A DNA stretch of 62,014 nt, filler included, from Sluysia triapertura (GCA_046118255.1; 5 parts of 5 records of this genome joined end to end with filler, not necessarily neighbours in it); one strand, 5' to 3'; numbered from the whole stretch's first letter, positions 15,738 through 58,451 are shown. Made by a program: numbers and translations. The notes: generated by a model from the letters alone, not told the origin.

Positions 15738-15784
15738 GTGAGTCCATCAACGTACTAGGCTTACCAGTTAGGGCTAGCCGTTGG
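15738..15784 (+). other. Dispersed structured motif, copy A
   Basis: GTGAGT-CCA-TCAACG-TA-CTAG-GCTTAC-CAGTTAGGG-CTAG-C-CGTTGG. Confidence 0.8.
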
Positions 15785-16506
15785 ATTTTTGCAATTGTAG
15801 AGATTAAAAATATATCTCAATGCATGCCTAAATTCTTGTTAGTCAAATTGAGTTGAGATCTGGAGGTATTTTAAATATAATTTAATAGCAATGATATAGT
15901 TATAAAATAGTTTACGAAAATCCTATGAAAAGAATTTTAAAACAAATGATTTTGCGTTTTCAGAATTATATTCTGAATAAAACCTCACTATACGGATGAT
16001 TTTATAAATTTTAATGATTATTAAGAATAATGAGGCTGTTAATGTTGCATAGCATAAAGTAAGGAAATGTATGAAATGTGGTGTATTTGAATAACGGATA
16101 CTCTTATAATGTATGTTAATGAATAATGTATGTTAAATAGTTTATTGCATCTTAAGGAATGCAGCATGAGAAATTATAAACTTATGAATGTTCTGTATTG
16201 AATGGTTTTAGTGACTTGTGATTTGGAGGAAACAGAATTATGCACGTTGAAAATTGAAAGGTATGTGTTTCACATTCCACAGAGTTGATGTAAGCTGATG
16301 TTTGAATTGTTTGACAAGATGTGGAAAATGAAATTTGAAAAGTAATAAAATTTTTACATGTTGAGGTAACATATGTATTGTATTGGATGTAAGATAAAGG
16401 GTGAGTCACCATAGTTATTTCGTTAATAAATAATGAATCAAGCTCATTTCAATCACTGCTTATAATCAAGTTTGTTTAAATCATATTTTGTCATAATTCA
16501 GGTTTT

Positions 16507-16672
16507 AACCTTCCGTCTTTCAAAAAAGTATGTATACATTGTATATCATTGGACCTGTCTGATAAGTAAAAATATTTAAAAATATTTTGTCTATTATATA
16601 AAAAGTCAGGATGTCAAAACAATTTCCATGTAATATATTACTAGAAAATAGTGAAATTTAGACTCGGGTCAT
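16507..16672. mobile_element. Second, inverted and truncated copy of the 4131-4323 MITE family
   Basis: Starts TTAA-CCTTCCGTCT. Its internal sequence (aaatattttgtctattatataaaaagtcagga...aaatttagactcg) is the reverse complement of 4160-4250. Confidence 0.55.
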
Positions 16673-17584
16673 TTCTCATATATTGCTAAAATATAATTAT
16701 TTATTCATCGGCTAATTTCCAATTTTTCTATTTGAAAATATATTTTGACAAGGTCATTATTTTAAAATATTTTCAAGCCAAATTAGTAAGATAAACATTA
16801 ATAAAAACTAATAACAATTATTTTAATTTTAATAATACTGTTTTTTGTACTAATACAATAAATTATAACATTAATTTTTTGCCTATATATAAATTAAAAT
16901 TAGAGGGTTTTTCATATAATTTAATTCTTTTGTCATCTAATCTTCTTGTGAAATAATTTAATCCATGCGTCACATAATTTAAACATTTTGTCATAACTTA
17001 ATCTTTATAGAAATTAATTAGAATATTGTATATATTTATATTGTATAATATTTTATTCAGTAAAATAAAAAACATAAGAAAAAAATAAGCGAACATTCAT
17101 TCTTTTTAATGAATTTAAATTATTACAATAAATTTGCAATAAAAGATATTTACTTAAAAGGCTCATTGTCAATTGCTCTAATTAAATATTCGCGCATGTG
17201 CCTAAAATATGCATTTATTTATGTGACATTCATTTATTAAGTAATCAGTTCAATAAAAGCTATGATTTTCTTATCGACTGGATTAAATGACGTCATTGAC
17301 GACCTGATTGTACTGACAAACTTCCTAAATAAGCTAAATTTGATTTCAATCGCTTTTTATCAAGTTGATACGTTCTCTACATTGAGTCTTCTTCATTTCT
17401 AACACTATTAACTAAAGATAAACGATTTTTTTTGAAATATCATCGGTATTTAATTGAAGTAAATCTGTTGTAATATAATAAGTTTATAATACGTCATATC
17501 TCTATAAAAACCTGGAATCAACGTTGCAATATAAATTATTATAAAAACTAAACATTAATAAAGGCAAAATAAAAGTTAGACAAC

Positions 17585-17625
17585 TATGGTGACCAGATTT
17601 TTAGATGGGCAAAACGGGACAACTC
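17585..17625 (+). mobile_element. hAT-type terminal remnant
   Basis: TATGGTGACCAGA...AAAACGGGACA resembles TAGGGTGACCA...GGGACA hAT termini. No partner end found. Confidence 0.35.
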
Positions 17626-55017: not shown

Positions 55018-55795
55018 CTCTACTGCAGCCATTGCGGTCGAAAACGACCGTATTCAGAAAATCAATGATTTCTGTACCTTGTAAACGTCCTACTGCTTAA
55101 TCAATAAATAAACTTAAACTAATAGCTGACTTTAATGTAAATATGAGTAGATCAATTGCTAGTTTATTATGCCGTGAACCGAAAAACCACAAAATAGTGG
55201 TTTATTGGATTTAGCTGTTATAAATTCTGCTGTGTCTTTCCAGAGAAGAGTGAGGAATGACAGTTTCATAGAAATTTAGAATGGAATTGGCCCATCAGCT
55301 GGTACAGCCGTTGTTAGACGTGTACTCGCAATCTGAAGTTCGACGTTTGGTTGGGCATAAACCGCAGGCTTCGAATTCAAGAAAAACACTCCACCTTTTG
55401 TGTGCATATGATAAGACAAAGACCACAAAATATTGTAAAAAGTGTTGTAAATATGTTTACGGAAACTGCTTCGAGAGATATCACACACGCTCAGATATCA
55501 GATGAATAGTGTGTATTATAGCAGTTAAATTTATGTTGCTGTTTTACTGTATGTTTTTACAGGTTTTTTTGACTTTGTAAATATTTTGTATATTTGTTAA
55601 AGTTAAAATTTATGCTTTTGTGTTATTTTTAACTTTTGTGTCGTGTGTGACTGAAATGTGTCTTTTGCACAGCTTTGTGCATGTTCTGCTCGAAGAGATT
55701 AACAAATTGATATATCAAATGCCAGGTGCTGCTTAATATATTAGCAATTAGTAATCTATAAACTGAGTGGCAAAAACAATCTGGCTGGCATAGAG
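55018..55795 (+). mobile_element. Non-autonomous piggyBac element with transposase C-terminal remnant
   Basis: TTAA on both sides (55014-55017, 55796-55799). TIRs CTCTACTGCAGCCA / TGGCTGGCATAGAG. Internal LDLAVINS...RMELAHQL...TKYCKKCCKYVYGNCFERYHT is a piggyBac C-terminus with its Cys-rich domain. Confidence 0.88.
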
Positions 55796-55972
55796 TTAAT
55801 AAATACTTTGTGAAGCAAAATTAAATTTTATTTAATGAATACCATTGTAAAACAATTGTGCTTATAAATGTGCTTATTAATGATGCTTATAAATAATAAT
55901 TTTAATACATTATTTTCTGTTTAAATAATATTGTCTTACTATTTATTAGTTTATATATTTTATTTTATCTAG

Positions 55973-56820
55973 ATAAACTATGTGAACCTAAAACTTCATC
56001 GAATTTAAATATATATTCTACTATAGTTGTTACATCTCAGTACTATAAATCTCCATTTTTCGCCCAGTTATTTACTCCAAAATTTAATAAATTACAAACC
56101 CGAAACCCAGAAATTCTCAAAAGCGCCTTTCATATTCAACAAAGAGCCTATTTGCGATATTCTGACCACGGAATTTTCTATCAATTTCAACAATTATTAG
56201 TAAATTTTCAATCATTTCTTCAACTTTTACATTCCATTCATAAAACTTATCAAAAACTCAATGCTTCTTATTCCACTAATACTATGTATCATAATTCAAA
56301 TTTAAATTACCTCAATTCTCAAGACCACACAAAAACTAAATGTATTAATTTTTTAACTCAAATATATAATAAATTGAAAAAGATTTTACTACAATACAGA
56401 AAATATCAAGCAGATTATCCTACTTTACGAACAATATCATATTTACATCAGTATCATCGTGAACAATCAGAATTATCATTATTAAATTCTGTGTTTGATG
56501 ATAAACCAATCACACCGTACGACGGAATACGTCAAAATTTACAGCAACAAATGAATAGTGCAATGCATATAAAATTAAAATTAAGAGAATATTTAGAAAA
56601 TTATATTTGTAAACAAATTCATCGTCAACAATATGAAAATCAGCAAAATTATATGACGGATATTGATTTTCTCAAAATGTATTTATCTAGCGGTATTGAC
56701 AAATCAAAAATAACCGAAGAACAATTAGAAAAATTGCAAAATCAAACTAAATATATTCGTAGTGCATTTCCGGTTTCCAGAAATAAAAATTTAATGAAAA
56801 TTTCCTTAATGAGGTTATAA
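55973..56820 (+). CDS. Large coding exon of an unidentified protein
   Basis: Acceptor ttttatctag at 55972. The frame is open from 55973 (phase 1) to the stop at 56820, about 280 codons, very unlikely by chance in DNA this AT-rich. Possible donor AG|GTTATA at 56814. Helical, Q/L/Y-rich, no domain recognised. Confidence 0.65.
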
Positions 56821-58404
56821 TTTGATGAAATTCTATTGTTATTTTAGTAGTAATTAAAAGTTAATTATTATGTATTCGAAAAATGTATAAATTAATTATT
56901 TAAAAACATTATTATAACATTTAATAATGTAATCATTGATAGAAAGTAATAAATTAATTATGGAAAAATAATATTTATGAAATAATCCTAGTAGAATGTG
57001 ATGTTCTAATTGTAATAAGTCTGATATTTCTGGCTCGCGCCTAGAAGATCTTCAAACTAGAAACAGTTTTTAATACAATAATGTTATCGCTTAACTTTCA
57101 AGACGAGTCGCTTATTAAATATATGTAATATAAGCTCTAATGCAAAAAATTTATTCATTATTATTATTATTTAAAACATAGTTAACACTTTTCGACTTCG
57201 GTTAGATATTTTTGCTCGAAATGCTCTTTACTTTTGTAGATGTGGGCTGAAAATATATTTATTTGTTGATTTTACACTTATTACGTTATTTATTGCACAT
57301 TATGACTTTTCTTAAATTGTTTTCTAAATCAGATGTGCTCAAACTTTTAAGTTGTAACCCTCATTTCAACATATTTATTTTTGGCGCTGCCCAACTTAAT
57401 AAAAAAAACATAACGTCACTATAAAACAAAACTTCATAAATAAAATAAACACCTTTTTAATAACAAAATGTATTTTTCTGGTTCTTATAAATTAAATAAA
57501 TTAAAAATTATGAACAACAACAGTTCTAATTAACAAAATTAAATTTTAATTCTTTATATCAAAAATGTAATAATATGTCTGTTAATATTTCATTTCTGTG
57601 AAATATTAATATTTTTTCAACACGTTGTTATTTAATAGCTGCTATTTTGAGATTGTGATAGCAATCTGCTAACGCTATTTTTAATTAACAGCTAAAAAAT
57701 AGCACAATACCAAATAACACATCTCTAGTTTACATGTATAATTGCTTTATGAATTTGTAAGTATATTTGCTTTGAAATTTTATTCTTCATGATTGTTCTA
57801 CCTCAAGAACGTAAAATTATGGAATTACTTGAATTGGTAAAAAAACAACAAAAAATATTAAAAGAAAAAACAAAACTTTGTTTGTAAAATCTAACCATTT
57901 TAAAATTTTTAACGTCTCCAAATTATTACCGGGACTCGCCCCCTACTTTTCGCACCTTTGATCTAAACATTCGTTTTTAGTAAATACTTATTCATTTTAT
58001 CGCAAGTTGCTTAAGTTCATATTTTTATTTTTGCTACCATACATATTTTGTACGCGATCGTTGTCGGACAAAGCCTTGATGACACTGTATATGGTTTAGC
58101 TAATGCCGATTACATTGTATAATAAAAGAAACAATGCAAAATATCAGAAGCTGTATAAGGCAAATCAGAATGTTAGATAATATTCAACGAAAAGAAAAAT
58201 ATGAGGTTGTAAATTATTGCATTTTCCATAATATCGTAACCACCTGTATAAATCAATAGTACAAATGATGTGTCAGACAAATTAACAACGTAAGGAAGTT
58301 TGTTAGAAAAAATATTGAATAAGAAGCAAAAATTGTCGTATTTTTGGTTGTACATATATGCTAGAGTTTTCTTAACTTGAGAACAGAATAAAAGATCAAT
58401 TGCA

Positions 58405-58451
58405 GTGAATCCATCAACGTACTAGACTTACCGATTATGGCTAGCCGTTGA
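58405..58451 (+). other. Dispersed structured motif, copy E
   Basis: GTGAAT-CCA-TCAACG-TA-CTAG-ACTTAC-CGATTATGG-CTAG-C-CGTTGA. Confidence 0.8.

Follow-up and report, generated by a model that had tools for sequence, protein, structure and literature searches.

The DNA considered here, referred to below as the window, is a stretch of 62,014 nucleotides from Sluysia triapertura (GCA_046118255.1) in which five contigs are joined end to end with filler, with a GC content of about 23% across its length. It carries receptor tyrosine kinase exons, a Ser/Thr kinase open reading frame (ORF) without introns, a remnant of a pogo/Tigger transposase and a short reverse transcriptase (RT) fragment, and among these lie nine copies, in four sequence families, of a repeated and covarying motif of about 50 nt (Table 1). 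Copies A to E, on four of the five contigs, had been listed in a first-pass annotation, and their positions and strands are confirmed. Four copies are added here, F and G being clear and I and H weaker; the feature is real and larger than first reported.

Table 1. Copies of the motif and the features associated with them in the window
Feature	Coordinates	Strand	Remarks
Copy A	15738..15784	+	Family 1, near the majority sequence; sense, in an intron of the EGFR-like kinase gene
Copy B	31607..31655	-	Family 2; sense, 477 nt past the stop of the intronless kinase ORF
Copy C	43390..43442	+	Family 2; pseudoknot stem lengthened; faces the end of a minus-strand 411-aa ORF
Copy D	53788..53834	-	Family 1
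Copy E	58405..58451	+	Family 1; sense, 1585 nt past the stop of a 304-aa ORF, with a high-copy repeat between
Copy F	4460..4505	+	Family 3; same layout, other stem letters; sense, 435 nt past the stop of ORF 3291-4025
Copy G	488..533	-	Family 3
Copy I	1953..2005	-	Family 4; core and 7-bp outer stem intact, inner stem weak, extra 3-4-bp hairpin in L3
Probable copy H	24855..24908	+	Family 4; core and 8-bp outer stem intact, inner stem unformed, extra hairpin as in I
Possible 5′ remnant of a family-3 copy	34733..34743	-	11-nt match alone, E 0.32, not significant
AATAAA of copy A	15717..15722	+	Ends 15 nt before the motif
AATAAA of copy C	43362..43367	+	Ends 22 nt before the motif; a second ends 30 nt before
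AATAAA of copy D	53848..53853	-	Ends 13 nt before the motif
AATAAA of copy E	58387..58392	+	Ends 12 nt before the motif
AATAAA of copy F	4446..4451	+	Ends 8 nt before the motif; a second at 4431-4436 ends 23 nt before
Left inverted-repeat arm, holding G	332..591	-	About 250 nt, about 73% identical to the right arm
Right inverted-repeat arm, holding F	4415..4667	+	Partner of the 332..591 arm

A scan for structure only recovered all of A to E, on one strand each, together with two unrelated fits, whereas shuffled windows gave 1.25 fits each (12 shuffles). Covariance models, an approach proposed in the first-pass annotation, added F, G, I and, weakly, H when run over the window. The model built from A, D and E matched B at an E value of 2.6e-9 and also F and G (E 0.03), which share the layout of the other copies but differ from them in almost all stem letters; the model of B and C matched A, D, E, F and G; and that of F and G matched I at E 5.6e-4 and H weakly at E 2.4. 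When the scan is anchored on the core, H passes with a perfect 8-bp stem, shuffled sequence giving 0.09 such 8-bp matches per window. The core plus the full interrupted stem occurs at seven sites of the window (A to G) versus none in 1000 shuffled windows, a result that speaks for specificity and not for independent discovery because the pattern was built from the copies themselves. Two degenerate copies formerly suspected near 15300 and 17836 were not upheld, as none of the three covariance models matches them (E<=10, <=5 and <=5); near 15300, 18 of 25 minus-strand positions agree with the 3′ half of B, at a nominal p of 0.01 among 32 tests.

Read from its 5′ end, the motif consists of two free bases, GAGUY, a 2-nt YR linker (L1; 1 nt in C as drawn), one strand of an outer stem of 6-8 bp, an internal loop of 2-3 nt, one strand of a 3-bp inner stem, RRYUU and an A that never varies. 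After this A come a small hairpin that differs between copies, GC, the strand completing the inner stem, 1-2 nt, the strand completing the outer stem and, in most copies, AUUU. Its outer stem keeps 59 of 59 standard pairs across the nine copies even though the letters change, the inner stem keeps all pairs in A to G (21/21) and 2 of 6 in H and I, and double changes between families are found at eight of nine aligned stem positions. The internal loop is 2x1 or 3x2, and its two sides switch in concert (TA/C versus ATC/TC). This switch, the stem covariation, a 5′ end complementary to the loop and the concerted lengthening of both pseudoknot strands in copy C are all as the first-pass annotation described them; its inner stem of 4 bp and L1 of 3 nt, on the other hand, are better drawn as 3 bp and 2 nt, copy B being unable to form a fourth inner pair. 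L1 is YR in eight of nine copies. Across the nine copies, 45 of 47 pairs are retained in the 5-bp pseudoknot core, whose first pair is G·U in every one of them, with two free and variable bases before it. One double change (copy B) and the lengthening in copy C make up the covariation of this stem, which, with many G·U pairs and few breaks, has moderate support. In the small hairpin of L3, which the first-pass annotation does not mention, the first pair is present in 7/7 copies (A to G) and the second in four of five, with one double change, and a 3-4-bp version is common to H and I. The canonical coaxial H-type geometry proposed earlier is unsupported, in that an L1 of 2 nt would have to cross an interrupted stem of 9-11 bp. 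Such a span is longer than those of classical H-type knots, so that a kink or a two-state fold is likely.

The pairing also distinguishes the two strands. In seven copies, the non-Watson-Crick pairs on the motif strand are 15 G·U against one A·C, the orientation bias claimed earlier; counted by eye as independent events, the bias is 7:1 (p 0.035). The pseudoknot stem alone has energies of -5.6 to 0.0 kcal/mol as RNA of the motif strand, favourable or neutral in 7/7 copies, versus +0.1 kcal/mol or worse in 7/7 with DNA parameters, both sets being hairpin energies and not a pseudoknot model.

Abundance and edges were read from the contigs of the one public sequencing run listed as containing this DNA, which is probably its source; no RNA run is listed alongside it, which says nothing either way about expression. 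At copy A, over which 3027 contigs align, 886 in part only, the summed depth is 24-48 in the far flank versus 74,000-420,000 over the motif, a figure inflated by overlapping contigs and not a copy number; single-copy pieces have a depth of 10-24. For the copy number, these data give a lower bound of about 1,000-1,700 and an upper one of 21,000-35,000. Depth falls about 100-fold within 10 nt upstream of copy A and about 50-fold downstream, and the repeat is sharply bounded, with roughly a thousand copies or more. Common variants among the contigs mostly keep the pairing (seventh base C to T in 19%, tenth base T to C in 97%); two others lie in CpG sites, and one of these breaks a pair. The earlier description of a high-copy, strand-specific, covarying structure is borne out more strongly than it was put, since four families show it, and the structure matches no Rfam family. 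Its further statement that similarity stops sharply at the G of GTGAGT stands for the fall in depth; however, an AATAAA box recurs 8-23 nt upstream, so that conservation does not fully stop there, and the leading GT is not kept in F to I, conservation beginning at the G of GAGTY. The shared flank reaches farther on the 3′ side, where depth is 3,100 at 15-25 nt versus 300-400 upstream, and one contig matches copy E from -38 to +202; this longer shoulder and the E-like contig indicate that the bodies of subfamilies lie 3′ of the motif.

In five of nine copies an AATAAA ends 8-25 nt upstream of the motif, at an observed spacing of 8-23 nt and over a background of 7.4% (p 2e-4). In the wider set of contigs, the consensuses of loose ends before the motif are A-rich at the same position, and one group of 79 contigs spells AATAAA. 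In planarians, according to passages of PMC5068929, the cleavage site follows AAUAAA at a distance of 10-30 nt. Directly behind the motif, ATTT follows in six of nine copies (background 2.6%). Flanks are otherwise not homologous between the copies, with the exception of F and G and of short matches at the AATAAA box. F and G are identical at 42 of 45 positions within the motif and at 108 of 151 in the 3′ flank (p 0.002), and this excess inside the motif points to selection on it. The copies also lie near gene ends. All four ORFs of at least 240 aa have a copy 122-1585 nt past the stop, three of them in sense (p 0.006 for either strand, 0.027 for sense, both post hoc), and the two copies of each pair, G/F and D/E, flank a single ORF and point away from it. 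H and I appear, by eye, to stand head-to-head with gene starts. As for the genes themselves, the Ser/Thr kinase (32132-33619; 495 aa) is intronless and divergent, its best matches being S6-kinase-type proteins of merely 25-39% identity, and the exons around copy A, beyond their Pfam kinase hit, we take to be EGFR-like by resemblance. The old inverted arms at 332-4667 enclose 4.3 kb with copy I, exon-like pieces of the plus strand near 2300-2460 and the P-loop ORF 3291-4025, which has no Pfam hit and resembles a truncated septin.

Taken together, an RNA role at the end of transcripts is probable, with a small additional share for a small RNA gene, and is favoured over a signal at the end of a DNA element. 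Within this role we prefer, with a probability of roughly 0.35, a self-cleaving RNA cut just before the G·U pair, at the transcript end in a family of repeats or gene cassettes. Four points are inferred here: the motif is transcribed, its pseudoknot and long stems form jointly, AATAAA serves as a poly(A) signal, and the fold is catalytic. The motif would fold as a compact RNA pseudoknot and cut on the 5′ side of the G·U pair that all copies share, which in copy A means between 15739 and 15740, so that transcripts of the cassette or repeat would be severed 10-25 nt behind a poly(A)-type signal. Cleavage at this point would terminate the upstream transcript and leave the downstream RNA with a defined 5′ end, much as hepatitis delta virus (HDV)-like ribozymes do for R2/RTE elements, although their fold is a different one. 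Three features argue for self-cleavage: conservation in all four families starts exactly at the G·U pair, the bases that never vary are gathered at the helix junction and the stems drift, and small conserved folds in animal repeats are usually ribozymes. On the last point, the sources consulted in part describe self-cleaving ribozymes as common in animal repeats, flatworms included. The site itself is likewise suggestive. At the HDV cut site, as presented in excerpts of PMC6561176, G1 is paired and the ribozyme lies wholly downstream, and a G·U first pair with free bases before it has the same pattern, which is counted for self-cleavage.

The HDV-like ribozymes of R2, RTE and L1Tc are among the nearest known systems. 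As far as passages of PMC6765202 and PMC6561176 describe them, they too are pseudoknotted, begin their conservation at a paired 5′ G with the upstream bases free, occur as many dispersed copies in animal repeats and bear a variable hairpin after the 3′ strand of the first stem. The motif differs from them in lacking P3, L3 and P1.1, in having just 5-6 nt, which pair with the 3′ joiner, between the 5′ strand of the second stem and the 3′ strand of the first, in a first stem of 5-7 bp, in the absence of a shared downstream coding body and in the AATAAA kept upstream. In all nine copies conservation starts at a paired wobble 5′ G with free bases before it. The hairpin in L3 is placed much as HDV P4 is. 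A hand-written HDV descriptor, with rules as we know them, fits none of A to E and gives one unrelated AT-rich fit in the flank of A, and Rfam has no HDV-like match; the motif would work, if at all, like an HDV-type ribozyme, yet it is not a member of that class.

Several observations weigh against self-cleavage. First, no known catalytic core is found by Rfam scans or hand-written descriptors, and comparative sequence cannot separate a ribozyme from a protein-binding or nuclease-blocking fold. Second, the pseudoknot stem is broken by A·C in E and by A·A in C, nine of its 15 G·U pairs are the one invariant first position, and its 2-nt L1 across 9-11 bp is strained, so that the stems may alternate. 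Third, the long stem by itself folds with about the same ease on either strand and picks neither, and minimum-energy z-scores are weak on the motif strand, where D alone is below -2. Fourth, AATAAA is absent from four of nine copies and its spacing elsewhere varies from 8 to 23 nt. Fifth, copy A lies in an intron in sense, where efficient cutting should harm the host gene. Finally, the autonomous parent expected in the flanks did not appear: among 103 short frames submitted, of 139 near seven copies, there is neither an RT nor another transposition enzyme.

A fold that blocks nucleases or binds a protein, lying past a normal cleavage site, would account for these data nearly as well as self-cleavage does. 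As a rival in its own right, the motif could be a non-catalytic RNA 3′-end signal, in which the normal machinery cuts 10-25 nt past AAUAAA and the pseudoknot, at the 5′ end of the downstream RNA, blocks a 5′-3′ exonuclease or binds a processing factor; we regard this as rather doubtful. The strand, AATAAA and gene-end data fit it equally, the 5′ edge of the motif coincides with the expected poly(A) cut position, and viral exonuclease-resistant RNAs (xrRNAs), in the parts of PMC12397905 consulted, are compact pseudoknots stalling Xrn at their 5′ base. Classes 1-3 of these xrRNAs share with the motif a size of about 45-55 nt, a pseudoknot and a sharp 5′ edge where the 5′-3′ nuclease arrives. Their layouts (a three-way junction with a double pseudoknot, or a loop pairing with the 3′ end; same source) are all unlike that of the motif, whose 5′ end pairs with the hairpin loop, whose nuclease resistance is putative and which belongs to a cellular repeat and not to a virus. 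Moreover, there is no same-strand gene within about 300 nt downstream, as an operon-like role would need, and AATAAA is missing in the same four copies.

The first-pass annotation had also raised a single-stranded DNA end, which is possible. In this explanation, judged unlikely here, the motif would mark where a DNA transposon ends, either a rolling-circle one (Helentron/HLE2-type) or one of another kind; the opposite strand then shows a hairpin 21-31 nt before a T-rich tract, with the element body on the other side. The right ends of Helentron, HINE and DINE-1 (HLE2) elements, as sketched in portions of PMC4067079 and PMC11417382, likewise belong to high-copy non-coding repeats and carry a hairpin close to a T-rich tract; in HINEs the palindrome is 8-35 bp away from the T-rich 3′ end (PMC4067079, same portions), a range that includes the distance found here. 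High copy number, a shared flank that is longer on the 3′ side of the motif and a long stem that folds on either strand fit such an end. The edges do not, since T-T stands directly outside the conserved edge in 0 of 8 copies and the shared T-rich tract is 8-23 nt farther out. As for the (sub)terminal inverted repeat of 11-18 nt that such an element should have at its other end, a search of the same contig for a 12-nt inverted partner, with one mismatch allowed, gave none for A, other motif copies only for D to G and scattered upstream-flank matches only for B and C, on contigs of 9-15 kb in which copies may be fragments. Further, the G·U bias selects the strand with an A-rich, not a T-rich, flank, DNA parameters make the pseudoknot stem unstable, the motif is better preserved than its flanks, and F and G share about 50 nt beyond the supposed end, as symmetric arms. 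In place of a compact palindrome of 5-10 bp, there is a loop of 14-17 nt with a kept internal loop, and that large loop pairs outside the hairpin on the other strand.

That the motif is a multi-copy small RNA gene is improbable. On this view the upstream A-rich box would be a TATA-like element, with the transcript beginning at the YR of L1 or at the first G and terminating at the T-run past the stem; the frequency of YR in L1, that of ATTT after the stem and an ATTGG within 250 nt upstream of five of eight copies (p 0.009, post hoc) can be cited for it. CCAAT/ATTGG boxes are seen upstream of C (43253-43354) and D (53926-53948) and also of F, G and H. The spacing from box to start nevertheless varies by about 15 nt, which exceeds the tolerance of a TATA box, four or more T occur in A, D and E only, a start in L1 would omit the strand that makes the pseudoknot, and Rfam has no small RNA match. 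Very improbable, finally, is the 3′ stem-loop of a long or short interspersed nuclear element (LINE/SINE), recognised by RT and left by extreme 5′ truncation, an RT recognition signal having been one option of the first-pass annotation: the hairpin with its conserved loop and weakly A-rich loose ends behind (agreement about 0.5) would fit, but none of the five copies tested has a poly(A) or microsatellite tail or a target-site duplication above shuffles, the strand that folds has its sharp edge 5′ and its shoulder 3′, the reverse of truncated LINEs, and none of the submitted frames is an RT.

Other known structures were compared and set aside, in agreement with the earlier view that hammerhead, HDV, twister and pistol do not fit. 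Rfam gives nothing at gathering score in the window, and unrelated weak matches only at E<=10 around A, B, D, F and H; twister and pistol are absent at both levels, with C, E, G and I scanned at gathering score only. For the hammerhead, with the core taken as CUGANGA/GAAA, no CTGA.GA is present within -60 to +160 of A to E on either strand, nor is there an Rfam match. Metazoan retrozymes with type I hammerheads, in the sections of PMC7229834 consulted, are also small structured motifs in hundreds to thousands of low-GC repeats; the motif has no hammerhead core and occurs as single copies, not as tandem units of 150-450 bp. Descriptions consulted in part require nested P1-P4 with the 5′ end in hairpin P1 for hatchet, whereas the 5′ end of the motif pairs into the loop of the long stem; an internal loop (5 and 6 nt) and a CA site of cleavage for the twister-sister-like (lantern) fold, for which the internal loop of the motif is too small; and a hairpin followed by terminal CTRR with A-T insertion for the Helitron HLE1 end, whereas here CTRR is inside the stem and neither edge ends in it. 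A spliceosomal mini-intron or spliced leader (SL) RNA is contradicted by the leading GT missing in F to I, by the YAG missing in F and G and by the lack of a conserved upstream leader, and these readings and that of attC all fail on families 2-4. Scans gave 0, 0, 3 and 3 matches in viral contigs, 0 and 4 in GTDB genomes and one in metagenomes, the last inside a bacterial ORF and without the 3′ stem. The 10 core-pattern matches among these form at most three of 6-7 long-stem pairs and are hence all chance; the collections hold little animal DNA and so do not bear on related animals. No description of the motif was met in the searched portions of the open PMC and bioRxiv literature, nor in those of PMC8557442, PMC11620745, PMC11662667, PMC7668243 and PMC12582326. 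As far as these searches of Rfam, of viral, metagenome and prokaryote collections and of open PMC/bioRxiv literature reach, the motif is undescribed.

Other repeats lie near some of the copies. An identical 10-mer stands behind A (15859-15868) and D (53731-53740) at unequal distances and is exact nowhere else in the window (nominal p 0.007-0.02 among 20-42 tests). Between 25024 and 25145, 120-240 nt behind H, are three hairpins of the same shape with varying letters (4-bp stem, bulged T, 2-bp stem, loop of 5-7 nt), and a similar bulged-T hairpin starts at 4508, right behind copy F. From about 70 nt behind B, 28168-28703 and 31003-31538 form a 536-nt inverted repeat that is 95% complementary, with a 72%-identical fragment at 18870-19080. 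The element at 40684-42235 has inverted ends of about 360 nt (84%) and an apparent decayed Tc1/mariner transposase on the minus strand, as judged by eye. The repeat of about 530 nt between the 304-aa ORF and copy E (57385-57911) is of very high copy, with a summed depth of 66,000-80,000, and the moderately repeated element at 55020-55790, with TTAA ends and a Cys-rich frame, we take to be like a piggyBac remnant.

Small self-cleaving RNAs fall, to our knowledge, into no more than about a dozen recognised classes, few of which were discovered in animals first. If self-cleavage is correct, a 46-nt member would be among the smallest pseudoknotted self-cleaving RNAs, and the comparisons made here may tentatively be extended to a new ribozyme class of about 46-55 nt, present at least a thousand times in a single animal genome and linked to a poly(A) signal, serving as a portable transcript end for gene-carrying repeats and kept by selection at gene ends. 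If the motif is a Helentron end instead, the finding amounts to the description of a new subfamily; a nuclease-blocking role would make it the cellular equivalent of viral xrRNAs, positioned at poly(A) sites. Ribozyme or nuclease block alike, it would define an end signal for gene-carrying cassettes.

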